A stretch of 64,000 nt of DNA, taken from the NCBI GenBank assembly GCA_041674405.1, contig JBAYVT010000002.1:23158-87157 (forward strand). Direction: 5' to 3'. The stretch's first letter is position 1, and each line of letters opens with the position of its first letter. Under the pieces are notes generated by a model. The model made no database searches. It had not been told where the DNA came from and saw only the letters and a list, made by a program, of their open reading frames with translations. Made by a program: the position numbers and the translations under genes. Origin of the DNA: Patescibacteria group bacterium. Its GTDB lineage: Bacteria; Patescibacteriota; UBA1384; XYA2-FULL-43-10. Positions 1,587 to 44,961 of this stretch are shown piece after piece.

Positions 1587-2894
<1,308 letters not shown>

Positions 2895-3573: not shown

Positions 3574-5057
3574 CCAAGCCAAAAGTCATTTTAATCATTT
3601 TGGATGGGTGGGGAATCGGCGAAAAGGATGAAGATAACGCCATTCACCTCGCTAAGACTCCTAATTTCGATAAACTCTGGGAGTCTTTTTCTCATGGCAA
3701 GATAAAGACCTCCGGCGTTGCTGTTGGTTTGCCGGCAGGGCAAATGGGCAATTCCGAAGTAGGCCACCTAACTATCGGCTCCGGTAGAGTAATTGATACT
3801 GATCTTGTCAAAATTTCTAAATCGGCAGAAAGAGGAGAGTTCTCCGCAAATCACGCATTTAAATCCGTATTTGACCATGTGAAAAAGTATGATAGCATCT
3901 TACACATTCAAGGTTTGATCGGTCCAGGTGGCGTTCATTCTCATTCCAACCATTTACTTGCAATCCTCAAGGCAGCAAAAGCTACGGGCATTGAAAAAAT
4001 TGCACTCCATGCATTTACCGATGGCCGCGACACAGACGCCAAAAGTGCGAACAAATATCTAAAAGAGTTAGAAAATGCTATTGAGGAAATCGGCGTTGGC
4101 TTTATAGCTACGGCAGTCGGCCGGTTTTATGCCATGGATCGCGATGATAATTGGGATCGTTTGAAAGTTGCCGAGGATGCGATCTTCGGCGGAGTTGCAA
4201 AAACGGTTGTCCGTAAAAAACCATCCGAAATTATGGAGGAATTATATGAATCAGGCATCACCGATGAACATATCGAACCGCACATTTTTCTAGATGAAAA
4301 AGGCAATGGTTATAAAATTGGAAAAAATGACGGTGTCATATTTATTAATTTCCGCGCTGATAGAGCCAGAATGTTTTCGAAAAAAATTCTCGAAAAACAG
4401 GAGGAACTCAATCTGTTTTTTGTCACTATGACTGACTACGGCAAAGATATTGATAGCGTCATCGCTTTCCCGCCAGATAACATTGAAGATACTTTGGCCG
4501 ATATTATTTCTGAAAATAATCTTACCCAATCTCACATTGCTGAGACCGAAAAATTTGCGCATGCAACCTATTTTCTAAACGGCGGCGTCGAAGATGAACA
4601 CAAAGACGAAAAGTTTATTCTGATCGAGAGCCGCAAAGATATAAAAACCCATGACCTTGCTCCCGGCATGCGAGCTTCTGAAATTGCTGATACAACCGTC
4701 GAAGAAATTCAGAAGGGGAGAGATTTTATCTTCGTAAACTTCGCCAATCCCGACATGGTCGGCCACACAGCGGTAAAAAAAGCGGTTATTGAAGCAATTG
4801 AGACAACCGACCGAGAGCTCGGAAAACTGGTAGAGACAGCACAAGAAAAAAAGTATGAGATCGTCATATCCGCCGATCATGGAAATGCCGAAGCTCCCGA
4901 TACTGCCCACACTGTGAATCCCGTCCCCTTGATCTATATTGGCGAAAAGTATTCTAAAGTATCTAATGGCGCCCTTTCCGACATTGCGCCAACAGTTCTT
5001 CAACTTCTCGAAATCAATAAGCCCTCGCGTATGACCGGTAAGGGCTTATTGAATTAA
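3570..5057 (+). CDS. gpmI: 2,3-bisphosphoglycerate-independent phosphoglycerate mutase
   Basis: 495 aa. N-terminus MTKPKVILIILDGWGIGEKDEDNAIHLAKTPNFDKL. ADHGNAE near the C-terminus. ATGA overlap with the upstream MTase. Confidence 0.9.
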   Translation: MTKPKVILIILDGWGIGEKDEDNAIHLAKTPNFDKLWESFSHGKIKTSGVAVGLPAGQMGNSEVGHLTIGSGRVIDTDLVKISKSAERGEFSANHAFKSVFDHVKKYDSILHIQGLIGPGGVHSHSNHLLAILKAAKATGIEKIALHAFTDGRDTDAKSANKYLKELENAIEEIGVGFIATAVGRFYAMDRDDNWDRLKVAEDAIFGGVAKTVVRKKPSEIMEELYESGITDEHIEPHIFLDEKGNGYKIGKNDGVIFINFRADRARMFSKKILEKQEELNLFFVTMTDYGKDIDSVIAFPPDNIEDTLADIISENNLTQSHIAETEKFAHATYFLNGGVEDEHKDEKFILIESRKDIKTHDLAPGMRASEIADTTVEEIQKGRDFIFVNFANPDMVGHTAVKKAVIEAIETTDRELGKLVETAQEKKYEIVISADHGNAEAPDTAHTVNPVPLIYIGEKYSKVSNGALSDIAPTVLQLLEINKPSRMTGKGLLN

Positions 5058-10130: not shown

Positions 10131-10592
10131 TTACTTCCTTTCTTTTGATACAAATTTTAAGATACTGATGTTTGATATTTGAAAAATTTTAACTATTTCA
10201 ACAATTATGGTTATCACTACCCCCATCATACTTAATATGATAAATATTTTTACCATAAGATCGGTCCATGAAGGTGCCGAAACAGCGGAAAAATCAAATG
10301 GATATGTCAAATACAATGCGTACATAGGCATAATTGAAATTACTGCCAAAAATATCAGTATGATATTTCTAAAGATTATTCGGTCATAGATCAGAAGAAT
10401 AGTATTCCCTAAAATTTGGGCAAAAAAATTTAGAACGAACAGCAAGATAGCGGCAATAGCTGAGTCCTTCAAAAATTTTAAATGCCAGTCAGGTAACTTG
10501 TAAAAAATTATTAGCAATATGATGTTCACTAACATTGAAAAAACGTAATCCACCTTGTGAGATTTCGCTGCTTGCTTAATCATTGTTTGCAC
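10131..10592 (-). CDS. hypothetical integral membrane protein
   Basis: 153 aa with 4 hydrophobic segments. No motif. Confidence 0.4.
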   Translation of the reverse strand: MQTMIKQAAKSHKVDYVFSMLVNIILLIIFYKLPDWHLKFLKDSAIAAILLFVLNFFAQILGNTILLIYDRIIFRNIILIFLAVISIMPMYALYLTYPFDFSAVSAPSWTDLMVKIFIILSMMGVVITIIVEIVKIFQISNISILKFVSKERK

Positions 10593-18556: not shown

Positions 18557-19570
18557 TTAATAAATCTCGACAACCATGCGTGGATTTTCAGCTACTTGCG
18601 CCTCAAGCTCCGATTTGGGCAACAACCCCCCTTGTGCTCCAATTATTCTGACAACGGAAGTAGAATTTACTATACCTGCTTTGAGTGCTTCAGATATCTT
18701 GTATTGATCGGAAAAATCCGCGTCTTTTGAATCTAAAAATTTCGCAACAAAAGCTGATGCAAAACTATCACCCGCTCCAGTCGCATCCACTCTTTCTCGA
18801 TTCATTGCTTCGATTCGATATGACCGAACCCCATCAAATGCGTAAGCGCCTTCTTTTCCATCGGTTACGATAATTATTCTTGGCCCAAGAGCATGAAGCG
18901 ATTTGGCAATTTCTTCAACCCGCGGCCGCACAGGATAATTGGAAAATTTTATTGCTTCTTCACGATTCAAAATCAATATCGAAACACATTTTAATAATGC
19001 CCTGTATTTCGAAACACCCTTTTCGATTTGCAAAGAACCAGGATTCCATGCAATTTTTGTTCCCTTCTCAGAAGCCATAGATATTAGATCCTTTTCAACT
19101 TCTTCGGTGTTTTCCCCCATCGGGCAAACAAAAAACCATTTAGTTTTTAAATTTTTTTTAGGCTTCAGCACTGAGTAATCTGAAACCCCGTGGCAAACAA
19201 AAATTGTTCTTTCGTCCCCAAGATTAAAAATGATTGAAAAATTTGTTTGGACATCATGTTTTTTAATGACCTGCGCTTCGTCTACACCCTCAATCCTAAG
19301 CCTTTCCAGTATTTTTTCAGAAGGAGAATCGTCTCCAATAGCAGTAATAATTGCAGTGTTATATCCAAGGCGATTGAACGAAACAGCAGTGTTGCATGCT
19401 GAACCGCCAATATCATAAAATGCATGTTCTAAAGAAATTTTTTCCCCCAGTTCAAAAGAAACAGATTTGCCCGAGGCATATCTCCGGCTGCTTTCAATAT
19501 CAAAAGTATGAGGCTTAACAAAAATATCCTCTGAAGCATCCCCAATTGTGACAATATCATACTTTGTCAT
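18557..19570 (-). CDS. PfkB-family carbohydrate kinase
   Basis: DATGAGDSFASAFVAKF (PfkB signature 2). Sits next to fba and pgk. Confidence 0.75.
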   Translation of the reverse strand: MTKYDIVTIGDASEDIFVKPHTFDIESSRRYASGKSVSFELGEKISLEHAFYDIGGSACNTAVSFNRLGYNTAIITAIGDDSPSEKILERLRIEGVDEAQVIKKHDVQTNFSIIFNLGDERTIFVCHGVSDYSVLKPKKNLKTKWFFVCPMGENTEEVEKDLISMASEKGTKIAWNPGSLQIEKGVSKYRALLKCVSILILNREEAIKFSNYPVRPRVEEIAKSLHALGPRIIIVTDGKEGAYAFDGVRSYRIEAMNRERVDATGAGDSFASAFVAKFLDSKDADFSDQYKISEALKAGIVNSTSVVRIIGAQGGLLPKSELEAQVAENPRMVVEIY

Positions 19571-20412
19571 ACTTTTGCTTTATTTCTTGAACCAAATAAT
19601 GTTATGTAATCACAGACTAATTTTTCAATATCAGCCTTCACTTCATTGAAGACATCTCTTGGATCATCGCTGATATCGATATTCTTTGAGGCGCTGGACA
19701 AGAACGCCTTGCGTATTTTGGTATCAATATTAAATTTGACCGCACCCGCTGCTATAGCAGCTTTTATGTCCTTCTGTGAAAGGCCCGATGCACCATGGAT
19801 CACAATTGGAACAGAACTAGCATGGGCGATTTTTGACAAAAGTGAAATATCTAACTTTTCACCCCTCGGTGCACCATGTTCATTGCCTACAGAAACTGCT
19901 AATGAAGTAATCCCGGTTCGATTAATAAAATCACTAGCTAAATCAGGATGGGTATATGAACTTTTGTTCGATAATTCTCCACCCTCTTCGCGCGAAATTA
20001 CACCCAGTTCCGCTTCCACATCTACATCAAATTCTTTCGCATACGAAACAACTTTTTTAGTTAAAGCGATATTTGATTCATATGGCAGTTTTGAAGCATC
20101 AATCATTACAGAATTATATCCGATATCGATGCACTCCTTGACTATTCCAAAATCACGCGCATGATCAAGGTGAATTGCGGCAAAAACATCTTGGCTGTCC
20201 AGTTCGCTTTTTATTATTCCAAATAGTTCAGGAAGCCCGGCATAATCGATTGCGCTTGGCGTAGTCTGAATAATTACTGGTGAATTCATTTTTTTTGCAG
20301 CAGCTACGACTACTTGTACTGTTTCGAGATTATATACATTAAAAGCACCTATGGCATAGCCATCGTTTTTGGCTCCTTGATATGCTTCTTTGAGATTTAA
20401 TAATGGCATCAA
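19567..20412 (-). CDS. fba: class II fructose/tagatose-bisphosphate aldolase
   Basis: LDHARDF and IHGASG motifs. Confidence 0.85.
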   Translation of the reverse strand: MMPLLNLKEAYQGAKNDGYAIGAFNVYNLETVQVVVAAAKKMNSPVIIQTTPSAIDYAGLPELFGIIKSELDSQDVFAAIHLDHARDFGIVKECIDIGYNSVMIDASKLPYESNIALTKKVVSYAKEFDVDVEAELGVISREEGGELSNKSSYTHPDLASDFINRTGITSLAVSVGNEHGAPRGEKLDISLLSKIAHASSVPIVIHGASGLSQKDIKAAIAAGAVKFNIDTKIRKAFLSSASKNIDISDDPRDVFNEVKADIEKLVCDYITLFGSRNKAKV

Positions 20413-21566
20413 ATTACGCTTGTCTTGATATTGCTCACAAATTTATTGTTGTCAAGTGCAATCAAGCCCGGCATCTTTTCACCAGCAAGGTATGAAAGAG
20501 TTGCACCACCGCCTGTTGAAATGAAATTAATATCGCCACGAAGATTGTTTGCATCGATAAACCCAACCGTATCTCCGCCCGCAACAATGGTAGTCCCTTT
20601 GTTTTTGGAAATTGCCTCTGCAATTCTCCTTGTTCCAGTCTCATATCGTTCGTCTTCCGAGTGTCCCAGATTTCCGTTCCAGAACGTCGTAGCAGCAGTC
20701 GCTATTTCAGCCTCAAATTTAGCAATTGTTTCCGGGCCGATATCCATGATTTTGAAACGGCCACCATCAGAATTTTCCCTAGCCTGATCTACCGGTAAAA
20801 CAATTTTATCTTGATATCTCGATAGAATATCCTCACAGGTTTCAAACATTTCCCTTTCATATAATGAATCACTTACGTCTTGGCCAGACGCCGCAAGAAA
20901 AGTATTGGCAATAGCCCCTCCAATTAAAATTTTGTCCGCTTGTCCTGCCAGATTATTTATCAAAGCGGCTTTATCCTTGACTTTTGCTCCGCCCAAAACA
21001 ATCTTATAAGGCTTTTGTGGATTTTGTATCAAAATATCAAGAGTTGTTTTCTCAGACTCAATCAGAAATCCGGCATAGCTTGGAAGATAATTGGTAATCG
21101 CATCTACTGAAGCATGGGCCCTATGGCTTACCCCGAAAGCATCATTAACATAAATATCTGCGTAGCTTGCAAGTTCTTCCCCAAATCTTTCATTGTTGGC
21201 TTCTTCTTCTCTGTGCCATCGCAGATTGCCCAACATAAAAATATCACCAAAAGTCATCTCTGATATTTTTTTGGCGACCAAGGGGTGAATTATGTGATCT
21301 GTCGCATACACTTTCCGTTTTAATAGCTTTGCAAGCTCAGAGGCGAGCGGGATGGTAGAAAGTTCTGGAATAATTTCTCCAGCCGGCTTTCCCAGATGAG
21401 TGGCAATGATAATCTTAGTCCTTCTTTCAAGTAAATACTGGAGAGTTGAAAGAGATTCAACAATTCTATTGTTATCTAAAATCTTACCGTCTTTAATCGG
21501 TACATTATAATCGACGCGAACAAAAATCCGCTTTCCACTAACGTTTGCATCCCTAACGCTAACCAT
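20409..21566 (-). CDS. pgk: phosphoglycerate kinase
   Basis: N-terminus KRIFVRVDYNVP. Typical PGK hinge and C-domain motifs. Confidence 0.9.
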   Translation of the reverse strand: MVSVRDANVSGKRIFVRVDYNVPIKDGKILDNNRIVESLSTLQYLLERRTKIIIATHLGKPAGEIIPELSTIPLASELAKLLKRKVYATDHIIHPLVAKKISEMTFGDIFMLGNLRWHREEEANNERFGEELASYADIYVNDAFGVSHRAHASVDAITNYLPSYAGFLIESEKTTLDILIQNPQKPYKIVLGGAKVKDKAALINNLAGQADKILIGGAIANTFLAASGQDVSDSLYEREMFETCEDILSRYQDKIVLPVDQARENSDGGRFKIMDIGPETIAKFEAEIATAATTFWNGNLGHSEDERYETGTRRIAEAISKNKGTTIVAGGDTVGFIDANNLRGDINFISTGGGATLSYLAGEKMPGLIALDNNKFVSNIKTSVI

Positions 21567-21727: not shown

Positions 21728-22660
21728 TTGCCTTACAGGCTTAAAGATCATCATTTAAACCATATATTTAGCATAATAAATAAGTATTATGAAATTTATG
21801 GCGTTTCCAAAAAAAGCAAAAAATTTTCTAGAATTGAAATTGCATCAGATTTAATCTGGATAAACGGCAGATCACAAATGCCACCCAAAAAAGTCTTGTT
21901 TGAAGACCAACAGATAATTTCGGAAGATCTCAATAAAAAGATTGCTTTCGTTGGCATGCCCCTGTGTGATGTCTCGGCCATCCATCATTTAATTTACAAA
22001 TTAAGAGATTCTGGATTAGTACCGGATCGAGATGATCTGTTGCTGATTGCATCTGAATGTAAGCCAGACGATGCTTGTTTTTGTGAATTTTTCGGTACTG
22101 ATAAGCGATCAGGTTTTGATATTTATATTCAAAAAAATAGCAGTGGGTACGATGCATTCTCAGGGACAGCTGCTGGAGAAAAAATTTTAAAAAAATTAGC
22201 GCTAATGCCTGATCACAAATTAAACCTGCGCCCAGTTACCCATAAGTCCCTAAACAAATTGTCCAAGGAAGAAATAACAAAACTGATTGAAAAACGCGGC
22301 CAATTTGATGACTTATGGAACAAGATTGCAAATAACTGCTTTGGTTGTGGCGCCTGCACAGCTGTTTGCCCGCTTTGTTATTGTTTTAGACAAGAAGAGA
22401 AAAATAATTTAGATGGCAGCTGCAAATCTTGCATAAATTGGGATTCTTGCTTTGCAAAAGAATTTTCCGAAGTACAAAATAGAGCTGATTTACGGCCTCA
22501 AAATGTTGACCGGCTATATAATTGGTATCATCACAAATTTGTCCGCTCCCCTTATCTTTGCGTCGGATGTGGACGATGTATCAAGGCTTGCCCTGCAAAT
22601 TTAAATATTAAAAATATTCTTTTATCAATTGAAAAGTTAGGCGAAAAAAGTGATGAATAG
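21728..22660 (+). CDS. hydB: [NiFe] hydrogenase (group 3b-like) beta subunit, Fe-S protein
   Basis: CFGCGACTAVCPLCYC and CVGCGRCIKACP clusters. TTG start with GGAGGGG SD. Confidence 0.7.
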   Translation: MPYRLKDHHLNHIFSIINKYYEIYGVSKKSKKFSRIEIASDLIWINGRSQMPPKKVLFEDQQIISEDLNKKIAFVGMPLCDVSAIHHLIYKLRDSGLVPDRDDLLLIASECKPDDACFCEFFGTDKRSGFDIYIQKNSSGYDAFSGTAAGEKILKKLALMPDHKLNLRPVTHKSLNKLSKEEITKLIEKRGQFDDLWNKIANNCFGCGACTAVCPLCYCFRQEEKNNLDGSCKSCINWDSCFAKEFSEVQNRADLRPQNVDRLYNWYHHKFVRSPYLCVGCGRCIKACPANLNIKNILLSIEKLGEKSDE

Positions 22661-23450
22661 CCCTTTTTCATATCGTGAATATAAAATTACTAACAAAACT
22701 GAAGTTGCTCCAGATACATTTCTGTTTCGACTTAGAGGAAAATTGAAATTTGATCCAGGGCAATTTGTCCAGGTAAAATTTCCCCATATCGGAGAAGTGA
22801 CTCTGGTTCCCTGCTCTAAAAAAGATGAAAAAACATATTTTGAACTTTGCGTTCGCAGAGCCGGAAATACGACCGAAAAAATATCTGAAAAGGTACCGGG
22901 TGATTCGATGTTTGTTCGAGGGCCATATGGGCACGGATGGCCAATCGGCAAAACATTGGAAAAAGATATTTTGCTGATTTCCGGCGGCATCGGAATCATC
23001 CCGCTTATGCCGCTTATGGATGAACTGGTGAAATATCGAGGTAATTTTGGGAAAATCTACTTTCTCGCCGGATTTAAAACTCCGCACCACGTCATGTTTG
23101 AACAGGATCTTTTGCGTTACAAAAAGAAAATAAGCTATTTCAAGGTTGCGGTCGAAAAAACCGACAGAGATTGGTGGGGTGAAAATTGTATGATCACCGA
23201 CTTGATTAAAAACACAAATCTGAGTCCAAATATCAATGTATTTCTATGTGGTCCGGAAATTATGTTTCGCCCCTGCGTCGATGTTCTATTACAAAAAAAA
23301 ATTAATCCGAAAAATATTTACGTTTCTTTCGAGCGAAGAATGGAATGCGGGATCGGTTTTTGCCAACATTGTACTATAGGCAAGTATAAAGTTTGTGAGG
23401 ATGGCCCCATATTTACCTGGAGCAAAATAGCACCGGAGTTAGAAAAATGA
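22650..23450 (+). CDS. hydG: hydrogenase gamma subunit (FAD/NAD-binding, C-terminal [2Fe-2S])
   Basis: Ferredoxin-reductase-like fold motifs. C-terminal CGIGFCQHCTIGKYKVC. Confidence 0.7.
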   Translation: MMNSPFSYREYKITNKTEVAPDTFLFRLRGKLKFDPGQFVQVKFPHIGEVTLVPCSKKDEKTYFELCVRRAGNTTEKISEKVPGDSMFVRGPYGHGWPIGKTLEKDILLISGGIGIIPLMPLMDELVKYRGNFGKIYFLAGFKTPHHVMFEQDLLRYKKKISYFKVAVEKTDRDWWGENCMITDLIKNTNLSPNINVFLCGPEIMFRPCVDVLLQKKINPKNIYVSFERRMECGIGFCQHCTIGKYKVCEDGPIFTWSKIAPELEK

Positions 23451-24178
23451 ATGCAATATTCCCCAAAAAAACACTAGGAATTTTTTCTCTCACTTGTTGC
23501 GAAGGTTGCCAATTTTCGCTGTTAAAGGACTTTGTTGGTTTTGAAAAAATCACAAGATTTTATGAAATAAAAAGTTTTCGCCTCGGGCAAGAAGAAAATG
23601 ACGAATGCTTTTTTGATGTTTCGCTTGTTGAGGGAACACCCGAGTCAACTCGGGAACTTGAGCATTTGAAAAAGATAAGAAAAGTATCGAAAGCAGTTGT
23701 TTCAATTGGCGCTTGTGCACATTTAGGCGGTATTCAATCAGAGCGAAATCGCTTACCTAAAAAATACATCGGAAAAGAAAAAGTTAAAAAAATTAGTGAC
23801 ATAATAAAAGTAGATTTGGTTATTCCTGGCTGCCCGATTTCCCACAAGGAGGCAGTGGCCGCCCTTCTTGACACATATTGGGGCAAAAAATTTCGGCCGA
23901 AGGATTATGCCGTATGTTTCGAATGTAGAAAAAATGAAAATGAATGCTTGATAAAAAATGGCAGACCCTGCCTGGGCCCGATCACCCGGGGAGGATGTGA
24001 TAGTGTTTGTATAAATGGTGGAGAATTGTGTCTTGGGTGCCGCGGTGCGTTAGATCAAACGAATTTTAATAAAATTAAAGAAATACTAAACCCGATGATC
24101 GGAGAAGACAAAACGAATAATCTCCTTACCATATATGGAGACCTGGAACAAGAATGGAAAGATCAGGACAGACAATGA
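23447..24178 (+). CDS. hydD: [NiFe] hydrogenase small (delta) subunit
   Basis: LTCCEGCQFS, VSIGACAHLGGIQ and IPGCPISH cysteine motifs. Confidence 0.8.
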   Translation: MNAIFPKKTLGIFSLTCCEGCQFSLLKDFVGFEKITRFYEIKSFRLGQEENDECFFDVSLVEGTPESTRELEHLKKIRKVSKAVVSIGACAHLGGIQSERNRLPKKYIGKEKVKKISDIIKVDLVIPGCPISHKEAVAALLDTYWGKKFRPKDYAVCFECRKNENECLIKNGRPCLGPITRGGCDSVCINGGELCLGCRGALDQTNFNKIKEILNPMIGEDKTNNLLTIYGDLEQEWKDQDRQ

Positions 24179-25092
24179 AATTTGAAGAATTAAAGAAAAT
24201 ACTAGCAAGTAAAATAGAATTTAAAGATTTTGACGACCCTGATGTCGTAAAAATTAATGCCGGTATAGTAAGTAATCATAAATATAAAATTAAAAGCCAC
24301 AATTCGAGTTTTTTTGTAAAAGAGATCAAAGACAACGAGGCAAATATTCTCAAAATATTAGATATGATTGATCTAGATTTCTATCCCAAAATCTTATATC
24401 TTGATCTACTCGATAAAAATATCCTCGTCTCCGAATTTATTGAGGGTGACGCACTGCAATCTTGGGAGATTCAGGACAATCTTCTGCTAGGTTTTACCCA
24501 AATGCAAAATTTGATGAATAATATTAGTTTCCTCAAAGAAAAAGAAATATTTGGTATTTCGAATTTTAGCGAAACTGATGGTGGTTTTTTCCGAAATCAA
24601 ATAACAGAAAATTTTTTATATGGATTGGAAACACTTGATGACTTGTCAAAAACTAATTTGCCAATCGTAAAAAAACACTTCGAGTTGGTATCTTTTTTGA
24701 AGAAAGATAAGCAAAAAATATTTGATGATTTTTCAAACATGCCGTTTGCGAGGCAACATCACGATTTCAAGCAGGACAACATCATTGGAAATCCACAAAA
24801 ATTGGTTGATTGGGGATCTTCTTATGGATATGGGCCATTTTTGTTTGATCTTGCTCCTTTTTTGTTAAACAATAAAAACCAATTAGAACTATACAAATCA
24901 AAATCAGATGTCTGCAAGGGCTTTACAGACCGCCAGATAAATCGCTGGCTTTATGTCGCCGCTGTAGCAAGATATATGGAAGATTTGAGATATAGAATTA
25001 GCGATAATGGATGGAATTCGTCTAAAGAAAAATGCGAACGCTTTCTTGAGAGCGAGTATGATAATTATCAGTCATTGCTTGATAAAATATAG
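24175..25092 (+). CDS. protein-kinase-like fold (APH/ChoK/CotS-type) phosphotransferase embedded in the hydrogenase operon
   Basis: HHDFKQDNII (HxDxxxxN) and LVDWGSS (DxG) motifs. ATGA overlap with the hydD stop. Confidence 0.5.
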   Translation: MKFEELKKILASKIEFKDFDDPDVVKINAGIVSNHKYKIKSHNSSFFVKEIKDNEANILKILDMIDLDFYPKILYLDLLDKNILVSEFIEGDALQSWEIQDNLLLGFTQMQNLMNNISFLKEKEIFGISNFSETDGGFFRNQITENFLYGLETLDDLSKTNLPIVKKHFELVSFLKKDKQKIFDDFSNMPFARQHHDFKQDNIIGNPQKLVDWGSSYGYGPFLFDLAPFLLNNKNQLELYKSKSDVCKGFTDRQINRWLYVAAVARYMEDLRYRISDNGWNSSKEKCERFLESEYDNYQSLLDKI

Positions 25093-25114
25093 CTAAAATT
25101 TCAGGAGATAGATC

Positions 25115-26362
25115 ATGAGTTCATCAGTTCCCAAAATTGAAGGACACGCTACTTTTTACGCCCATCTTCGTGCCGGAAAAGTTGACAAGGCCAGAATTAT
25201 TGGCCTTGATGGAGATCGGTTTGTTGAAAAAATATTATTCGGGCGCAGCTATATGGAAGTACCAGTAATTACCTCTCGCATCTGTGGTATATGCCCCGTA
25301 ATTCACAATGTTACCTCAACCAAAGCTGTGGAAAATGCTCTCGATATCAAGGTTTCCGAACAAGTAGAAACACTGCGGAAACTAATGCTCTGTGGCCAGA
25401 TGGTTCAGAGCCACTCGCTTCATCTATACCTTCTGGTTCTTCCCGATTTCATGGGAATGTCTTCCTCTTTCGAGCTTCAAAAAAAGCACCCGGATATTTT
25501 TGCCGATGCAGTTGCCCTAAAATCATATGCCGATAGTATTATTGAGATAATCGGAGGCAGGGCAGTTCATCCGGTTTCGAACGTACCTGGCGGTTTCAAA
25601 AAATTTCCGGAAATTTCTGAATTACGGAAATTACTGGAAGAAAGTAAAAAGATGACCGATCTTGGGATTAAAACATTAAAGCTTTTTCAGTCATTTAATT
25701 ATCCTGAAATTTCCCGCAAGATAATTTACTCGGCGTTGTCTGACCTGAATGAATATGCTTTCTATGGCGGAGAAATCAAGACCACGAGCGGTGAGAATTT
25801 TAAAGCAAAAGATTATAAAAAATATATTTACGAAGAAATTCTGCCATATAATCGTGCGAAATTTGGAACGCTCAAGGGCAAAGAAATGATGGTTGGCGCA
25901 ATTGCCCGGATTAATCTCAACAAGAAACAATTGGAAAAAGAAATTGGAAGTTTGAAGGAACTTGGTGTAGGTGAAGAGCTGTCCGATAATCCATTCGGTA
26001 ACATAATTGCCCAAGCAATTGAAAACTATTATTTTATCGTAAAATCAGAAGCGATAATTGAAAAATTAATTAAAGAGGGTATTTCCGAAGAGTCAATAGT
26101 TGAACCAAAAAAAATTGATGAAGGAGTTGCTGCTTGCGAAGCACCGCGTGGAACGCTGTTTCACTACTACAAATTTGACAAAGAAGGTATGCTTGAAAAG
26201 TGTGATATTGTTACGCCAACCGTACAAAATCTGCCAGCATTGGAATATGACATGAAAAAACTCGGCCCCTTTCTCAAGGACTTGGACGAAACAGAGAGAA
26301 CAGAAATGATTGAGATGCTTATTCGTTCATATGACCCATGCATCACTTGCGCCACACATTAA
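25115..26362 (+). CDS. hydA: [NiFe] hydrogenase large (alpha) subunit
   Basis: N-terminal RICGICPVIH. C-terminal DPCITCATH, ending exactly at the His. Confidence 0.9.
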   Translation: MSSSVPKIEGHATFYAHLRAGKVDKARIIGLDGDRFVEKILFGRSYMEVPVITSRICGICPVIHNVTSTKAVENALDIKVSEQVETLRKLMLCGQMVQSHSLHLYLLVLPDFMGMSSSFELQKKHPDIFADAVALKSYADSIIEIIGGRAVHPVSNVPGGFKKFPEISELRKLLEESKKMTDLGIKTLKLFQSFNYPEISRKIIYSALSDLNEYAFYGGEIKTTSGENFKAKDYKKYIYEEILPYNRAKFGTLKGKEMMVGAIARINLNKKQLEKEIGSLKELGVGEELSDNPFGNIIAQAIENYYFIVKSEAIIEKLIKEGISEESIVEPKKIDEGVAACEAPRGTLFHYYKFDKEGMLEKCDIVTPTVQNLPALEYDMKKLGPFLKDLDETERTEMIEMLIRSYDPCITCATH

Positions 26363-26468: not shown

Positions 26469-27350
26469 ATGAATGCAATCATTGAAATCAAAAAACTGAC
26501 AAAATATTATGGCAAAACCCTCGGGATTAAAAGCCTTGATTTGGATGTAATTGAAGGAGAAATATTTGGTTTTATCGGGCCAAATGGCGCTGGCAAATCT
26601 ACAACGATCAGGCTTTTGCTAGATTTAATTCGGCCAACAGCGGGAAGTGCAAAAATTTTTGGCAAAGATATCCACCGCCATAGTGTGGAGCTTAAACAAG
26701 ATATCGGCTATTTGCCAGGAGAAATATTTTTGCCGGAAAATCTCACCGGTAAAAGCTGTATTAATTATTTTAAATCCTTCAAGGAAACAATTGATGACAG
26801 ATATCTTAAAGATTTAAAATCTCGTTTTGAATTTGATGATAAGAAAAAGATTTCCCAGTATTCCAAAGGCAATAAGCAAAAATTAGCAATAATTTTAGCC
26901 CTGATGCACAAGCCGAAACTCCTAATTCTAGACGAACCGACAAGCGGGCTCGACCCCTTAAACCAGCAAGAATTTTACAAGGTTATCACCGAAACAAAGG
27001 AGTGGAGAACAACAACTTTTTTCTCAACTCATATTTTGGATGAGGCTGAATTTCTTTGCGATCGAGTCGGAATCATTAAGGATGGCCGTCTGCTCCAGAT
27101 TGAAGACATCGACAAATTTAAAGAAAAAAATATTCGTGAAATAAATCTGGAAACCACCGCAGATATTCCTCTTTCGGCCTTGAAAATTGATGGCGTCGAA
27201 AAGACGGAAAAAACTGATCATGGCTATCGCCTAATCACCAAGGGCCATAACGGCGAATTGATAAAAATCATTTCGAAATTTGCAATCGATGACATTAAAA
27301 TATCCGAACCATCGCTTGAAGAAATATTTATGCATTTTTACGAAAAATAA
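26469..27350 (+). CDS. ABC transporter ATP-binding protein
   Basis: Walker A GPNGAGKST. Signature YSKGNKQKL. Walker B LLILDEPTSGLD. Confidence 0.85.
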   Translation: MNAIIEIKKLTKYYGKTLGIKSLDLDVIEGEIFGFIGPNGAGKSTTIRLLLDLIRPTAGSAKIFGKDIHRHSVELKQDIGYLPGEIFLPENLTGKSCINYFKSFKETIDDRYLKDLKSRFEFDDKKKISQYSKGNKQKLAIILALMHKPKLLILDEPTSGLDPLNQQEFYKVITETKEWRTTTFFSTHILDEAEFLCDRVGIIKDGRLLQIEDIDKFKEKNIREINLETTADIPLSALKIDGVEKTEKTDHGYRLITKGHNGELIKIISKFAIDDIKISEPSLEEIFMHFYEK

Positions 27351-27447: not shown

Positions 27448-28251
27448 ATGGATAATATGATCGCAATAATGTACAGAAAATTTATTGACCAAGCGATTTC
27501 ACTTCTATATTATTTTGGCGGCCTACTCGCCTACTCCTGGATGATGATCGCCATGTTTCCAACAATGAAGACGGCAGATCTGGCCGGTATTTACAACCAA
27601 TTTCCCAAAGAATTTCTAAAGTTTTTTGGCGCCAACGGGATTGAAAGCATGGGAACGGTAGAAGGTTTTTTATCTATAGAATTTCTTTCGCTGTTTTTTA
27701 TACTAATTATCGCTTTTTATATCGGCTCGTCCGCCGGATCAACCATAGCTGGCGCAATCGAAAAAAGGACAATGGATTTTCAGCTATCACAGCCAATTTC
27801 TCGGGCTAAGCTTTTACTCAGTGAGACAATCGTCGGGCTCCTCAACACTGCACTTTTGGTATTTGCCACTTCAGGCAGTATCTATATTCTTGCAAAGGCA
27901 TACGATGTTTCAATGAGCACTCGGGGAATCTTCGTTTTTGCTTTTGTGGCGATAATATTCTTATGGGCATTTTACGGGTTAGCAGTTTTGATTTCTTCCA
28001 TCTTGCGCAGCAAAATCACCGTTGCCTCGATAACGGTATCTATTATCATGGGCTTGTATATATTGAATGCTCTTTCGAAAATCGTGGATAAACTGGCAAA
28101 GATCGAAAAATACACATTGTTTAATATGTATAATCCACAAAAACTTTTGACCGATCACATCATAAACTGGCACCAGATCGAATTCTTGCTTTTAGTTCTT
28201 GTGGTTGGAATAATTAGTTCAATATTGATATTTAATAATAAAGATATCTAG
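27448..28251 (+). CDS. ABC-2 type transporter permease
   Basis: 6 TM segments. Follows the ATPase gene. Confidence 0.55.
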   Translation: MDNMIAIMYRKFIDQAISLLYYFGGLLAYSWMMIAMFPTMKTADLAGIYNQFPKEFLKFFGANGIESMGTVEGFLSIEFLSLFFILIIAFYIGSSAGSTIAGAIEKRTMDFQLSQPISRAKLLLSETIVGLLNTALLVFATSGSIYILAKAYDVSMSTRGIFVFAFVAIIFLWAFYGLAVLISSILRSKITVASITVSIIMGLYILNALSKIVDKLAKIEKYTLFNMYNPQKLLTDHIINWHQIEFLLLVLVVGIISSILIFNNKDI

Positions 28252-28305: not shown

Positions 28306-29094
28306 TTATGGTTTCCTAGAAACGAAAACTAATCCGATCGGGTAGGTTTTTGGAAACTTAGGTTGTTTTTCAAGAAGTTCGGCGGTTACTTCCGGCTCTA
28401 ACATTTTTTCAACCACAAACCCCGCTTTAATCAAAGAATTAAAATAATCAGAAATCGGCCGTTGATAATGTTCAATCTCGTAAACCTTTTGGTATTTTTG
28501 AGCAACATCAACATCCCGAATCTTACTGTTGTCCATTGTAAATTTCGAGTATCCCCTACTAAAATACCCTTTCGATCCCCGAATGGTCCTCTCTTTCCCG
28601 TCGGCTTGTCCCCGCAAATAGGTAACGAGATCCCATACAGGGTGAGTGATTGCAAACAAAAACCGTCCTCCGTTTTTCAAGGTTTTAAAAGCCTGGGACG
28701 TAACAAAGTCAATCTCTTCGAGTTCGTTCAGCAAGAAACCTGAAAAAATTACATCTACGGAATTCGGTTTTATTTTCCAGGGTTTGGTAACATCTTGTTC
28801 AATAAATTCGGCTATATTGGTCTGAACTCTTTTTCTCGCAAAATCCAAATTATGGGGAGATATGTCGATTAGAATTAGTCGATCTGGGTTCTGACCCTCA
28901 ATTTGCGAACTGAAATAACCGTTGCCGCACCCCAAATCAACCACCGTCTTCCCGTTTAACGTTCCAATCTCAGATAATAATTGCGGGTTGAGCACATATT
29001 GTTTGTAGACCCCGCCATTATCTCCGGTCGCTTCGTTCCAAAAACTCGCAAATTCAGGATCTAAATATGCAGAAATCGCATTATTCTGTGTCAT
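28306..29094 (-). CDS. class I SAM-dependent methyltransferase
   Basis: VVDLGCGNGYFS motif I. Confidence 0.7.
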   Translation of the reverse strand: MTQNNAISAYLDPEFASFWNEATGDNGGVYKQYVLNPQLLSEIGTLNGKTVVDLGCGNGYFSSQIEGQNPDRLILIDISPHNLDFARKRVQTNIAEFIEQDVTKPWKIKPNSVDVIFSGFLLNELEEIDFVTSQAFKTLKNGGRFLFAITHPVWDLVTYLRGQADGKERTIRGSKGYFSRGYSKFTMDNSKIRDVDVAQKYQKVYEIEHYQRPISDYFNSLIKAGFVVEKMLEPEVTAELLEKQPKFPKTYPIGLVFVSRKP

Positions 29095-29314
29095 GGTGGT
29101 CCATTTCTTTATGGGTTTTTATAAATTTTAAGTTCTCTTTTGCTTCGGTTTCGGAGATTTTTGAAAGTGCCCTGCCGTCGTGCATCAAAATCCAATCCCC
29201 GACTTTAGGATTTTGAACTAGAGAAATATCGGCCTTGTATTCTTCACCCTCATAATCAAAAAGGGCAATTGCCCCTTTGATTTCTTTGATTTTTCCAGGT
29301 ATTGCTAAACACAT
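29081..29314 (-). CDS. hypC: hydrogenase maturation factor HypC/HupF
   Basis: MCLAIPGKI N-terminus (the Met-Cys start is essential in HypC). About 77 aa. The track ORF starts 7 codons earlier. Confidence 0.75.
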   Translation of the reverse strand: MCLAIPGKIKEIKGAIALFDYEGEEYKADISLVQNPKVGDWILMHDGRALSKISETEAKENLKFIKTHKEMDHHDTE

Positions 29315-29370: not shown

Positions 29371-30369
29371 TTATTTTGAATTTGTTACCCGCTCCACCAT
29401 ATCCACAAGCCTCTCTGAGTATCCCCACTCGTTGTCATACCAGGCAATTATTTTAACAAGATCTCCACCGATCACGCATGTTAATGGTAGGTCGACTATC
29501 GATGAATATGGATTTTGTTTAAGGTCGCTTGATACCAGCGGCTCTTCTGAAACCTGAATTATTCCTTTGTGGCTGCCATCTGCAGCCTTTTTAAGTGCTT
29601 CATTAATATCATCGACTGAAACTTTTTTGGAAAGAACCGCAACGATATCAGAGAGCGAAACCACCGGGGATGGAACACGGATCGATAAGCCGTCAAATTT
29701 ATTCTTAAGCTTGGGTATTGTCAAAGTCGCTGCTATTGCCGCACCTGTCGTAGTCGGAACAATATTTTGGGCTGCAGCGCGAGCCCGGCGCAGGTCTTTA
29801 TGCGGACCGTCAACCAAATTTTGGTCAGCCGTATAGGAATGAATCGTTGTCATCATTGATTTTTCAACGCCAAATTCATCCTCAATCACCTTCATCACCG
29901 GCGCGATACAATTGGTTGTACAGGAAGCATTTGAGACAATACTCTCGTCATCGTATTTATCAGCATTAGCGCCGATCACGAAAGTCGGAACCGAATCATC
30001 CTTTGCCGGCGCGGACAAAACAACTTTTTTGGCGCCGGCTTCCAAATGGGCTTTTGCCAAATCATTAGTCAAAAATATACCGGTCGACTCGATGACAACA
30101 TCGATATCAAGTACTTTCCATGGCAAAGCTCCCGGATTTTTCTCCGAAAGGTAATGGATTTTCTTGTTATTGACGATAATCTCATTATCAGAAAAGCCAA
30201 CTTCCCGGTCGTAAATACCGTAGCATGTGTCGTATTTTAAAAGATGGGCTTGGGTTTCTGCCGGGCACAGGTCATTTAAAGCGACAAGCTCAACATTCGG
30301 CCGGTCCAAAATTATCTTCGCCGCCGCCCGGCCGATCCGTCCAAAGCCATTAATTGCTACTCGCAGCAT
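29371..30369 (-). CDS. gap: glyceraldehyde-3-phosphate dehydrogenase
   Basis: MLRVAINGFGRIGR and SNASCTTNCIAP. Start set at the internal Met so the gene does not overlap tpiA. Confidence 0.9.
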   Translation of the reverse strand: MLRVAINGFGRIGRAAAKIILDRPNVELVALNDLCPAETQAHLLKYDTCYGIYDREVGFSDNEIIVNNKKIHYLSEKNPGALPWKVLDIDVVIESTGIFLTNDLAKAHLEAGAKKVVLSAPAKDDSVPTFVIGANADKYDDESIVSNASCTTNCIAPVMKVIEDEFGVEKSMMTTIHSYTADQNLVDGPHKDLRRARAAAQNIVPTTTGAAIAATLTIPKLKNKFDGLSIRVPSPVVSLSDIVAVLSKKVSVDDINEALKKAADGSHKGIIQVSEEPLVSSDLKQNPYSSIVDLPLTCVIGGDLVKIIAWYDNEWGYSERLVDMVERVTNSK

Positions 30370-31132
30370 CCACCTCCTTCGGGATAACAACGTCACCTTT
30401 AAAACTTTTATTTGCTGCCCAAATGCGGCAGATTTCGACAAATACACTTGCTCTAAGGCTGGCACTGCCAACCAAGACTCCATCAATCAACGGCGATTTA
30501 GCAAAATTTAATATTTTTTCATGGTCTATGCTGCCACCATACAAAATTGGGCTTTCTCGGAATATCACTTCGCGAAGTTTGGCCACTGCTTTTTCTGCAT
30601 GTTCGACCGGTGCGGCATTGTGATTGCCAATTGCCCATACGGGCTCGTAAGCCACAACAATATCCTTGTATTTGTTTTTTGGAACATGAGTCAAGGCCTC
30701 TTCAAGCTGGTCGGCAGCATCGGACAGGGGGGCGCTTTTCGTTTTCTCGCCAACACAAATGATTGGAGACAATCCGTGTTTTAAGGCTGCTAACACTTTT
30801 TCATTAACATCAAAATCTGTCTCGCCAAAATGAGCCCGGCGTTCCGAATGTCCGACAATTACGTATTTGCAAACATCGCGAATCATAATCGGCGAGATTT
30901 CACCGGTGTAAGGACCCTCATCTTCATAAAACATATTTTGGGCCCCTAGGTTAACCTTTCCGTCTCTTTTCAAAATTTCTGATAGTTCAGAAAGCCAGAT
31001 CACTGGCGGGCAGACCACGACCTCGACTCCATCAAGACTGGCAACAGAGTTTCTGATTGAGGTCGCTAAAATATACGCATCAGATGCCCGCGTATACATC
31101 TTCCAGTTCGCAACAACCATCGGCCGTCTCAT
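30350..31132 (-). CDS. tpiA: triosephosphate isomerase
   Basis: VVANWKM and AYEPVWAIG motifs. Confidence 0.9.
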   Translation of the reverse strand: MRRPMVVANWKMYTRASDAYILATSIRNSVASLDGVEVVVCPPVIWLSELSEILKRDGKVNLGAQNMFYEDEGPYTGEISPIMIRDVCKYVIVGHSERRAHFGETDFDVNEKVLAALKHGLSPIICVGEKTKSAPLSDAADQLEEALTHVPKNKYKDIVVAYEPVWAIGNHNAAPVEHAEKAVAKLREVIFRESPILYGGSIDHEKILNFAKSPLIDGVLVGSASLRASVFVEICRIWAANKSFKGDVVIPKEVDAASSN

Positions 31133-42548: not shown

Positions 42549-43960
42549 TTGCTCTCCAATCTCTCAGTAATTAATTTATTTATGATCTGCGGATTGGCTT
42601 TTCCACCCATTTCGCGCATAACAAGACCAACAAAAAAACCTAAAAGTTTTTTCTCACCAGTTCGATATCGCTCAGCCTCGGCCGGATTCTCTGAAATTAT
42701 CTTGTCAACAATTTTTCCAACTGAGTCTTCGTCGGAAACTTGTTCGAGGCCTTCGGCCTTAATAATTTCAGCTGCAGTTGTACCGCTTTCAACCATTTTA
42801 GAGAAAATGTTCTTTGCAGTGTTGTACGAAATTTTTCCTGATTTTATAAAAGAAAGAAGGTCACCAAGATGTGTTATTGGAACCCGTTTTTTGTACTCTT
42901 CATATGTGAGCTTTTTGTTGGCAATTTCCCGGCTGACTTCTTCGGTCACCCAGAGAGCCAATGCTTTTTCTAATTTTTCCGCATCCTTAAGATAAGTCGC
43001 ATGATCAATATTTGAGACAATTTTATCAGCAATGTTTTCTGGAATTTCAGATTCATTAAGATGTGCTTTGAGTGTTGCGGGTGTATGCCCAATAGATTTT
43101 TTAATTGTTTCAACCGCATCGTTCGGGGTTTTGACCGGTGGTAAATCAGGTTCTGGAAAATATCGATAGTCGGCAGCTTCCTCTTTGCGGCGTTGTTCGA
43201 AAGTAATATCTTTTTTGCTGTCATAACCTCGAGTGATCTTCGATTTTTTTTCCGGCCAATTTTGGTAATCGTCTTCCAATCTTTTTGCTTCGATCAGAAG
43301 CGCCCTTTCAATAAATTTGAACGAATTAATATTCTTGAGTTCAACTATTGGCGACATCTTTCCATTTTCATCCTTCACATCAATATTGGCATCGCAGCGC
43401 AAATGTCCCTTTTCCATCGATGCCTCGGAAACTCCGAGATATTTTACGAGAAGAACAAGTTCCTGCAAAAATTTTTTTGCTTCCGCCGGCGAGGTAATGT
43501 CCGGCTCGGTCACTATTTCCATAAGGGGTGTGCCGGCGCGGTTAAGGTCAACATAACTTGCACCATTTTTATGTATTAATTTGCCGGCATCTTCCTCGAG
43601 ATGAATGCGGTTTAATCTAATTTTGTGCCCGTCAATTTCAAGATGTCCCCCAATGCAAAAAGGTTGATCGTACTGGCTAACCTGAAAACCTTTTGGCAAA
43701 TCCGGGTAGAAATAGTGTTTTCGGTCAAATTTTGAAAGGGGATTGATTTTGCAATTCATAGCCAGGCCAGTCTTGATAGTCCACTCTATTGCTTGCTTAT
43801 TCGCAACAGGCAACGCGCCTGGCATGCCAAGGCAGACTGGACAAACATTGGAGTTTGGCTCGGCAGATTCCGAATTATTGTCACATTCACAGAACATTTT
43901 GCTTTTCGTCGCAAGCTGTACATGAATTTCTAATCCGATTGTAGTTTTAAACTTAGGCAT
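42545..43960 (-). CDS. gatB: Asp/Glu-tRNA amidotransferase subunit B
   Basis: N-terminus KTTIGLEIHVQL...MFCEC. Confidence 0.9.
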   Translation of the reverse strand: MPKFKTTIGLEIHVQLATKSKMFCECDNNSESAEPNSNVCPVCLGMPGALPVANKQAIEWTIKTGLAMNCKINPLSKFDRKHYFYPDLPKGFQVSQYDQPFCIGGHLEIDGHKIRLNRIHLEEDAGKLIHKNGASYVDLNRAGTPLMEIVTEPDITSPAEAKKFLQELVLLVKYLGVSEASMEKGHLRCDANIDVKDENGKMSPIVELKNINSFKFIERALLIEAKRLEDDYQNWPEKKSKITRGYDSKKDITFEQRRKEEAADYRYFPEPDLPPVKTPNDAVETIKKSIGHTPATLKAHLNESEIPENIADKIVSNIDHATYLKDAEKLEKALALWVTEEVSREIANKKLTYEEYKKRVPITHLGDLLSFIKSGKISYNTAKNIFSKMVESGTTAAEIIKAEGLEQVSDEDSVGKIVDKIISENPAEAERYRTGEKKLLGFFVGLVMREMGGKANPQIINKLITERLESK

Positions 43961-44496
43961 TATCTTCCTTCGGAATCGTTAACATTATCTTCTTTGTATC
44001 GTGTCGCTTGTTCAGAACTGGTTCTCCAATCACCCTGTCCTGTGGTCACGGTCTTTGGTGTATCATGTTCACCAGCCAAATATCCGGGCAATGCATCTTC
44101 AACATGATCCCTTAAATAAGTGGCATTTCTCATATCTCTCCATGAATGGTAGTATTTTGGAATGATCCCTTGATTTATCACGGATGAGGCATAATTCAAA
44201 TATTGATCACTGGGCTTTAACTCAAGACTGGAAGCAAGATAGTCTTTCACCTGTTCGATGGAATTTGGGTCATAAGGGTCTAGTGAAGAAATACCAAGAA
44301 TATTTGAAATGATAATCAATCGGACCAATGGACTTGATTGCTCTAAACCGGCAATAATATCATCGATCGTTTTTTCTTCGTTTCTATGTAAATGTTCACG
44401 TATAATTTGCGGAAACTGATCTGAAAAAAGTGAGACCTTTTCAACAGCGTTTTCTGTTTCACCTGGAGGGATAGCTCCAATTCCTTCAGATTTCAT
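43960..44496 (-). CDS. hypothetical protein
   Basis: 178 aa with no recognised motif. Confidence 0.4.
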   Translation of the reverse strand: MKSEGIGAIPPGETENAVEKVSLFSDQFPQIIREHLHRNEEKTIDDIIAGLEQSSPLVRLIIISNILGISSLDPYDPNSIEQVKDYLASSLELKPSDQYLNYASSVINQGIIPKYYHSWRDMRNATYLRDHVEDALPGYLAGEHDTPKTVTTGQGDWRTSSEQATRYKEDNVNDSEGR

Positions 44497-44514: not shown

Positions 44515-44961
44515 TTATATTTCCTGAATATAAGCTAAAAATTTTTGGGTGGCAGACACTAACGTTTGTCGCCCGATTTCTCCGTTGTCATGGGCAATCT
44601 GATTTCTTATTTTATGCGCGTACCATACTGATTCATATGTATTCCTATCCATAAATTTTTCCGCCGCGCGCAATCTGTCAGCAAACGTTTCCCCTTCACA
44701 ACCTTTCAATTTCAAAATGAAATCCACCAACTTGTCTGCTTCCAAAACCGCATGTTTTAGCTCAATTTTATTGTCCGAATTAGCAAGATCTAAAATTTCA
44801 TTTCTTTTTGTGCGGATATAATTTTTCTCCTCGTTTGAAATTCCCCGCTTGACTTTGCCTTTCTTTCGAAATGGCAAAGTAACAAGCCACCATAACCCAC
44901 GGAACAATCCTAAAACTATTACTTCCGGAACCGTTTGCTGATTTTTTTTATAATTTGCCAT
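44515..44961 (-). CDS. hypothetical protein with an N-terminal TM helix and an Rx4H (HEPN-like) motif
   Basis: VIVLGLFRGLWWLVTLPF TM segment. AHKIRNQIAHDNG near the C-terminus. Confidence 0.4.
   Translation of the reverse strand: MANYKKNQQTVPEVIVLGLFRGLWWLVTLPFRKKGKVKRGISNEEKNYIRTKRNEILDLANSDNKIELKHAVLEADKLVDFILKLKGCEGETFADRLRAAEKFMDRNTYESVWYAHKIRNQIAHDNGEIGRQTLVSATQKFLAYIQEI

Follow-up and report, generated by a model that had tools for sequence, protein, structure and literature searches.

A [NiFe] hydrogenase operon with a large subunit that ends at the last motif histidine

We analyzed a stretch of 64,000 nucleotides (contig JBAYVT010000002.1 of assembly GCA_041674405.1, positions 23,158 to 87,157 of the forward strand), hereafter the window, from a Patescibacteria group bacterium of the candidate phyla radiation (CPR), and examined the [NiFe] hydrogenase genes at window positions 21728-26362. 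The window has a GC content of ~40%, and the database record of the exact large-subunit protein names a Patescibacteria metagenome-assembled genome (MAG) as its host. The hydrogenase region consists of five co-oriented, tightly packed open reading frames (ORFs), namely hydB, hydG, hydD, a gene that we call X, and hydA, the last of which stops directly after the histidine of its C-terminal motif:

21728..22660, + strand: hydB (beta), 310 aa, TTG start preceded by GGAGG; Fe-S electron-transfer subunit, AsrA-like
22653..23450 (alternative start 22650), + strand: hydG (gamma), 265 aa; FAD/NAD(P)-binding diaphorase with a C-terminal [2Fe-2S] motif, overlapping the end of beta
23447..24178, + strand: hydD (delta), [NiFe] small subunit, 243 aa; the ATGA start overlaps gamma
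24175..25092 (alternative start 24154), + strand: gene X, 305 aa (312 aa from 24154); small-molecule kinase of the APH/choline-kinase fold
25115..26362, + strand: hydA (alpha), [NiFe] large subunit, 415 aa; the last residue is His415 of DPCITCATH
26360..26362, + strand: TAA stop directly 3' of the C-terminal His codon; a second in-frame stop follows 4 codons on

The beta subunit matched Fer4_22 (E=3.2e-20) and the NCBIfam models ShyB (1.6e-27), HydB (1.3e-26), and AsrA (1.3e-20). Pfam places FAD_binding_6, NAD_binding_1, and DHODB_Fe-S_bind domains in gamma, for which the NCBIfam matches were AsrB (2.4e-56) and HydG (1.1e-49), with ShyC also matched. Delta, whose translation has its cysteines in three groups of four, matched Oxidored_q6 (3.7e-21), ShyD (4e-45), and HydD (5.2e-36), and alpha matched NiFeSe_Hases (PF00374, E=2.6e-39), its best NCBIfam model being sulfhyd_ShyA (282 bits, 7.1e-84) followed by HydA (241 bits). 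The ORF positions and the Pfam and NCBIfam matches agree with the initial annotation, a reading of the letters alone that had recognized four hydrogenase genes with diagnostic motifs in sulfhydrogenase order. The locus is a four-subunit NAD(P)-linked [NiFe] hydrogenase operon of a type already published for CPR bacteria.

The usual view is that the maturation of a [NiFe] hydrogenase passes a checkpoint made up of a C-terminal peptide and the protease dedicated to it. The alpha subunit of the window has the motifs of a [NiFe] large subunit, with the four Ni/Fe-binding cysteines in RxCGxC (RICGIC, residues 55-60) and DPCxxCxx[H/R] (DPCITCATH, residues 407-415) and with the EGH, HP, and EAPRG motifs, and its sequence ends in YDPCITCATH followed at once by TAA. 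E9-G10-H11, RxCGxC, H152-P153, E342-A-P-R-G346, and DPCxxCxxH are invariant in 31 relatives with 58-80% identity. Its best sequence match in the PDB is the alpha subunit of Pyrococcus furiosus SHI (2.6e-67), which aligned through the last residue of the mature chain. PDB entries exist for the SHI alpha precursor (428 residues) and for the mature chain (424 residues). Because the alignment reaches the end of the mature chain, the product of the window gene corresponds to the form that Pyrococcus obtains by processing. This end-to-end match bears out the earlier description of a large subunit without a C-terminal extension and with its stop at 26360-26362. The AF2 model of alpha (pLDDT 86.8) also has SHI alpha as its closest solved structure (TM 0.85-0.86, root-mean-square deviation 2.0-2.4 Å; TM 0.86 to 9nf0), followed by 3c, 3d, and bifurcating enzymes at TM 0.81-0.82.

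The stop codon after the histidine is genuine

The 171 bp around the stop codon are identical in the ENA assembly (a contig of 137,857 bp), the Logan assembly of SRR6484325, and JGI metagenome 3300037067. Relatives have the same end, and together these data exclude a frame or sequencing error at this site. Of the 120 nearest protein clusters at 90% identity (58-100% identity), 119 end exactly at the histidine and the remaining one is a fragment. When one genome per GTDB species was scanned, yielding 80 loci, every one of the 59 Patescibacteria and Altiarchaeota loci with the motif was a complete ORF that stops directly after the histidine. The stop codon at this position in zero-tail ORFs is TAA in 38 cases, TAG in 13, and TGA in 9, and since three types of stop codon occupy the same position, the end is maintained independently of the codon. 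An alternative genetic code or read-through was considered and rejected: the window gene ends in TAA, its relatives use all three codons, and with TGA ending 11 of the 32 genes in the window, the code must be the standard one.

The absence of the tail is fixed in a large clade

The length of the tail, that is, of the sequence after the motif histidine, was compared across more distant large subunits. Bacteria of other phyla found in the species scan, with 28-32% identity to alpha, have tails of 24-35 aa. Among the 150 best representatives at 50% identity, 41 are without a tail, most of the others have tails of 4-19 aa, and a few carry a fused endopeptidase domain. We then placed 206 large subunits, with their tails cut off before alignment, in a neighbor-joining (NJ) tree that was midpoint-rooted and had neither support values nor curated group references. 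One pure zero-tail clade in this tree, with 93 of the 206 sequences, holds the window protein, the four-subunit CPR loci (hyd1), the two-subunit CPR loci (hyd2), and Altiarchaeota, and its sister comprises 95 short-tailed 3b-like sequences, mostly with tails of 4-19 aa. Five state changes account for the distribution of tails across the whole tree. These results indicate that the missing tail is a trait fixed in a large clade (CPR hyd1, hyd2, and Altiarchaeota) and no peculiarity of this genome; as the zero tail is typical of the clade, the window locus itself is ordinary. Because the tails of canonical 3b enzymes are only 4-19 aa long, their complete loss is a small evolutionary step. The other end of the protein also differs from canonical 3b enzymes: the segment N-terminal to [RK]xEGH has a median of 6 residues in the window subclade, 9 in other tail-less representatives, and 12 in tailed ones.

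Several relatives have unusual architectures. One ORF of 564-592 aa joins a truncated small subunit to the large subunit in the hyd2-type P0129, P0139, P0156, P0244, and L058:5464-7158 (L numbers denote loci). P0222, P0253, and P0263 are substrate-protease fusions, in which the large subunit and a normal tail are followed by a full maturation-endopeptidase domain with GxGNxxxxDDG. The C-terminal motif is degenerate in P0123, P0125, P0128, P0146, and P0224 (NICPTCALH, NFCPNCALL), with no Asp-Pro and sometimes no His, and these proteins end there too; they may be non-catalytic paralogues.

The enzyme is a relative of group 3b hydrogenases of the CPR hyd1 type

By sequence and structure, the alpha subunit is nearest to the characterized group 3b enzymes. 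NCBIfam gave 282 bits for ShyA and 241 for HydA versus 157 for VhuA and 134 for FrhA, with 21-27 bits for the NuoD/group-4 models, and PDB sequences gave 231 bits for SHI versus 207 for Mvh. The subunits that define group 3b are encoded together, with the large and small subunits accompanied by an AsrA-like Fe-S beta subunit and an AsrB-like FAD/NAD(P)/[2Fe-2S] gamma subunit. What the locus lacks is the short extension that a HybD/HycI-type endopeptidase removes in Thermococcales, as the tail is zero and there is no protease in the window. Since the tail is a maturation trait and not a criterion of classification, this makes the enzyme a variant and does not exclude it from group 3b. Neither NCBIfam nor PDB sequence, fold, or tree places it in a non-3b group that lacks the tail, and its earlier description as group-3b-like stands.

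Among characterized enzymes, P. furiosus SHI/SHII and Thermococcus kodakarensis Hyh (PDB 9nez, 9e15, 5yxy) have the same subunit set and order, with an alpha subunit of the same fold (TM 0.85-0.86) and 34-36% identity. However, the SHI precursor of P. furiosus runs 4 residues past the histidine, whereas the window alpha has no tail and no linked protease. The group 3b enzyme of T. kodakarensis is reported to be activated by one endopeptidase (PMC7654741).

The closest published systems are those of CPR bacteria. Jaffe et al. 2020 (PMC7304191) describe CPR-specific 3b-related clades, hyd1 and hyd2, with hypC nearby, and a 2024 paper in Microbiome (PMC10811913) models a 3b operon of Berkelbacteria. 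The window locus has the features of hyd1, namely a CPR host, a place in a 3b-related CPR clade, a small subunit of 243 aa, beta and gamma subunits, and hypC in its context. Its large subunit clusters with the CPR four-subunit loci L001-L051, and the nearest species loci, with 61-65% identity, are from Berkelbacteria. The hyd1 and Berkelbacteria operons likewise have four subunits (AsrA/AsrB-like, a small subunit of ~250 aa, and a large one), a hypC-family gene nearby, and a Patescibacteria MAG as host. We found no structural difference from them except that gene X lies between hydD and hydA in the window lineage only. The order of beta upstream of gamma is kept in 35 of 60 tail-less loci. Term searches did not find "C-terminal" in PMC7304191 or "maturation" in PMC7304191 and PMC10811913, and searches of an incomplete body of literature turned up no previous account of group 3b or CPR hydrogenases without a tail.

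Large subunits without an extension are known from other groups, and section 11 of a 2025 review (PMC12134894) lists 2b, 2d, 4c, and 4e only. According to PMC12134894 and PMC7654741, the 2b/2d sensors, the CO-linked 4c enzymes, and the 4e Ech enzymes resemble the window enzyme in that the large subunit is made ending at DPCxxCxx[H/R] and uses Hyp proteins but no cognate endopeptidase. In the window, too, the ORF ends at the motif histidine, this end is conserved in relatives, and the linked DNA encodes no cognate endopeptidase. The listed enzymes differ in belonging to other phylogenetic groups and in having sensor-kinase or membrane partners, whereas the window clade is a soluble NAD(P)-linked relative of group 3b that is off the list of that section. 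Hydrogenases that lack the extension by nature are active (PMC12134894, section 11). A tail-less HoxG of the MBH of Cupriavidus necator, engineered by Hartmann et al. 2020 (PMC7294309, as cited in PMC7654741 and PMC12134894), likewise shows that an enzyme can receive its cofactor and be active without the peptide. That truncation was artificial, concerned a group 1 enzyme, and lowered the enzyme level slightly, whereas the truncation in the window clade is natural and fixed by evolution.

A tail is accompanied by a linked protease, and its absence by the absence of one

The window holds one maturation gene:

29081..29314, - strand: hypC, 77 aa, starting MCLAIPG; Fe(CN)2CO-transfer chaperone

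It lies 2.7 kb downstream of alpha, matches HupF_HypC (E=3.5e-21) and TIGR00074 (8.4e-20), and keeps Cys2 and the conserved His. We searched for the other Hyp proteins and for HycI by a motif scan, by tblastn with the Escherichia coli Hyp proteins and HycI, in the recorded Pfam matches of called genes, and by a Pfam scan of the remaining ORFs. Neither the 64 kb window nor the ~5 kb upstream of it yielded HypA, HypB, HypD, HypE, HypF, or a HycI-type protease, which upholds, over a longer stretch, what the initial annotation had said of the window: no protease gene, no hypABDEF, and only hypC near the operon. Within ±10 kb of the operon in the window subclade (L001-L016, L027), hypC is again alone among the maturation genes. 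Unannotated small ORFs were considered as a divergent protease or Hyp protein and rejected: 10131-10592, 43960-44496, 44515-44961, and 55672-58053 are without a Pfam match, and 58118-58552 encodes ribosomal protein L9. The ORF at 55672-58053, on the minus strand, is 793 aa long.

As a positive control, the protease domains of fused large subunits and E. coli HycI were used as queries. The long-tailed loci L064, L066-L068, and L072-L079, with tails of 24-35 aa, have an endopeptidase gene immediately downstream of alpha, while the same queries found nothing in the window or in any tail-less locus (~60, ±7-10 kb). A third type of small-genome hydrogenase (L094:8023-9710; L093:11945-13285, Kuenenbacteria) pairs a ~155 aa small subunit with a large subunit of 431-446 aa that keeps a tail of 7-9 aa (FLKVNWI, FLKINWTKE). 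In L094, where the tail is 7 aa long, a divergent HycI-like gene (PF01750, E=1e-4) adjoins alpha, as it does in a sibling contig, and is followed by hypC-hypD-hypE and a short hypF. Taken together, a tail goes with a linked protease, and no tail goes with no linked protease.

The tail-less clade keeps other maturation genes. Of 60 tail-less loci, 39 have a hypC homologue no more than ~4 kb from alpha, and hypC-hypD-hypE-short hypF stand beside the tail-less hydrogenases of L024, L034, L045, L058, and L092. The short HypF is 368-401 aa long and consists of HypF_C domains only, without the acylphosphatase and zinc-finger domains (L024:7711-8916, L045:6789-7910, L092:13531-14718, L094:12019-13125). 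HypD is widespread in Patescibacteria. Directly downstream of alpha in nine loci of one CPR subclade (for example L017:4891-5148) is a truncated HypA of 85-88 aa, which has the N-terminal domain and no zinc-finger part.

Other genes recur beside tail-less hydrogenases. A DUF6390 gene (~246 aa, with a weak HypC-like C-terminal stretch; L025:8494-9210) adjoins 20 of the 60, an EamA-family transporter gene (L025:7602-8507) adjoins 18-19, and a glutaredoxin and a thioredoxin-reductase-like flavoprotein often accompany these genes. They may form an accessory set of uncharacterized function; none of the four is present in the window.

Gene X is best read as a passenger of the operon

The start of gene X overlaps the stop of delta (ATGA), so that X is translationally coupled to hydD, and X ends 22 nt before alpha. 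Its GC content is 32%, versus 36-40% in the other four genes of the operon. The Pfam APH match of the protein falls below the cut-off (E=3e-4, 21.0 versus 23.2 bits), but its 59 homologous clusters include many with PF01636 recorded, and the named members come from Woesearchaeota, Nanoarchaeota (DPANN), and other uncultured lineages. K56, H202-H203-D204, and D219-W-G are invariant among the homologues. The AF2 model (pLDDT 91.6) has APH, ChoK, or hexosamine kinases as all of its top PDB folds (probability 1.0, TM 0.4-0.5). X thus has the bilobal fold, ATP-binding lysine, catalytic loop, and DxG metal-binding motif of the APH/choline-kinase family.

The position between delta and alpha is shared only with a 72%-identical homologue (L087). 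A homologue with 51% identity and the archaeal homologues occur in unrelated contexts, the copies in L089-L091 are not near hydrogenases, and X is in none of the 80 species loci. A role as a conserved hydrogenase accessory or replacement maturation factor was therefore rejected, X being absent from the 80 loci and present only in the operon of the 72% homologue. Relatives carry other small genes between their subunit genes, at L002:9535-9957, L007:8856-9239, L009:902-1315, L011:7860-8231, and L001:7845-8474, and these encode a PD-(D/E)XK nuclease, three 23S-rRNA-IVS proteins, and a hexapeptide transferase. The CPR hydrogenase operon looks like an insertion hot spot. Since only the nearest relative shares the position of X, the 80 species loci are without it, other homologues lie elsewhere, and relatives carry other insertions, X is best read as an unrelated small-molecule kinase and a lineage-specific passenger of an insertion-prone operon. 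It would have been inserted between hydD and hydA in a narrow lineage and would be co-transcribed with them. Small ORFs inserted in these operons were also considered as hidden proteases and rejected, as they encode PD-(D/E)XK nuclease, 23S-rRNA-IVS, hexapeptide transferase, pilin-like, EamA, DUF6390, alpha/beta hydrolase, and Fpg proteins.

A route of maturation that would do without a protease

We infer from the conserved motifs, gene content, and distribution described above that the operon very probably encodes a functional cytoplasmic NAD(P)-linked heterotetrameric hydrogenase of the hyd1 type, matured without a protease, with an inherited loss of the tail and with X as a passenger. The alpha subunit would be synthesized at its final length, HypC with HypD, HypE, and the short HypF would deliver Fe(CN)2CO, nickel would enter, and the C-terminal histidine would close the active site without an endoproteolytic step, so that a HycI/HybD-type protease would not be needed. 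The tail-less state would have been inherited from the ancestor of the large tail-less clade and would not have arisen in this genome. The whole tail-less clade probably defines a minimal natural route that relies on HypC, HypD, HypE, and a short HypF; an endopeptidase would be absent from it, and HypA and HypB would usually be absent as well.

Four points weigh against this interpretation. To our knowledge, no member of the tail-less clade has been characterized biochemically, and both activity and unprocessed maturation are predicted from the genes. The absence of hypA, hypB, hypD, hypE, and hypF from the whole 64 kb window and the 5 kb upstream weakens it, as does the fact that the tree on which the history of tail loss rests is a midpoint-rooted NJ tree without support values. 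Finally, the maturation protease of Salmonella can bind large subunits lacking the peptide (cited in PMC7654741), so a distant, unlinked protease could act as a chaperone.

This last point leads to the alternative that survives best, in which the tail-less large subunit still needs a HycI/HybD-family protein encoded elsewhere, not as a protease but as a chaperone for folding or for a nickel checkpoint. The protease search covered the linked DNA of this genome, and some small-genome relatives do retain a divergent HycI-like gene. However, the retained gene adjoins a tailed large subunit (L094), and no such gene is linked to any of the ~60 tail-less loci in the flanks searched. We consider this alternative very unlikely.

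A second alternative is a relic or repurposed operon that makes no NiFe(CN)2CO cofactor of its own and is either inactive or dependent on a host cell for the cofactor or for maturation factors. CPR bacteria are reduced symbionts, and hypD, hypE, and hypF are missing both from the 69 kb around the operon and from the ±10 kb flanks of 16 close relatives (L001-L016). Against this, strict conservation across many species extends to all motifs for metal binding and the proton pathway and to every Fe-S cysteine, hypC retains Cys2 and its conserved His and stays syntenic, other members of the tail-less clade carry hypCDEF beside the enzyme, and hyp genes are often unlinked from the structural genes. 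We consider a relic or repurposed operon very unlikely. Equally doubtful is a related account of the Berkelbacteria-like subclade alone, based on the same linked DNA (the 69 kb around the operon and the ±10 kb flanks of the 16 relatives), in which hypC alone was kept, hypABDEF and the protease were lost, and the cofactor or maturation factors come from the host cell; the minimal route is much more likely.

It is extremely unlikely that the enzyme is not of group 3b but of a group that normally lacks the extension (2b/2d sensors, 4c, or 4e Ech), in which case the absence of the tail would be expected. The margin between 3b and 3c is moderate (the 231 and 207 bits of SHI and Mvh), and the clade is separate from canonical 3b in the NJ tree and in PMC7304191. 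However, a sulfhydrogenase alpha subunit is the best match by NCBIfam, by PDB sequence, and by fold, the HydB/AsrA-like and HydG/AsrB-like subunits that define 3b are encoded upstream, the NuoD/group-4 scores are low, and the window has neither membrane subunits nor sensor-kinase partners. Finally, although a one-base shift just before the stop would add 6 or 22 residues, there is practically no chance that an extension exists and is masked at 26360-26362 by an error of sequencing, assembly, or frame, given three independent assemblies with the same sequence and the same last residue, before TAA, TAG, or TGA, in 119 of 120 clusters and 59 of 59 species loci.

The operon type is known (CPR hyd1), and what is new is that a 3b-related clade joins the known category of extension-less hydrogenases. 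A large, widespread, natively tail-less, soluble, NAD(P)-linked clade related to 3b would be a fifth exception beside groups 2b, 2d, 4c, and 4e, and its distribution in the tree suggests that the tail was lost once and that the loss then persisted. The clade would offer natural templates for heterologous NAD(P)H-coupled hydrogenases with fewer maturation genes. It also sharpens the question of which maturation genes the tiny CPR genomes keep, and in particular what the full complement is in the genomes of the window subclade.

The operon lies among glycolytic genes

The hydrogenase operon is flanked on both sides by genes of central carbon metabolism, and a transporter lies between hydA and hypC:

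18557..21566, - strand: PfkB-family kinase, class II fructose-bisphosphate aldolase (FBA), and phosphoglycerate kinase (PGK), divergent from the hydrogenase operon; Pfam record
26469..27350 and 27448..28251, + strand: ABC transporter pair (ATPase and ABC-2 permease, respectively), between hydA and hypC; Pfam
29371..31132, - strand: glyceraldehyde-3-phosphate dehydrogenase (GAPDH) and triose-phosphate isomerase (TIM), directly downstream of hypC; Pfam record

The gene order PfkB-FBA-PGK (-), hydBGD(X)A (+), ABC transporter, and hypC-GAPDH-TIM-CofD (-) is conserved across the window subclade. PfkB-FBA-PGK occupy the same position in L001-L008, L011, L014, L016, and L027, the ABC pair is also 3' of alpha in L001-L003, L005, L006, L011, L012, and L016, and many other CPR loci have GAPDH a few kb or less from the hydrogenase. 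CPR 3b enzymes have been viewed as re-oxidizing NAD(P)H in fermentation or as reducing polysulfide (PMC7304191, PMC10811913), and the glycolytic neighborhood fits this view. Most likely, the enzyme would dispose of GAPDH-derived NAD(P)H as H2, but it might also run in reverse or reduce polysulfide. An enolase and two iPGM-like genes are also encoded in the window (1608-2894, 3570-5057, and 63007-63975), the last of these ORFs being cut by the window end.

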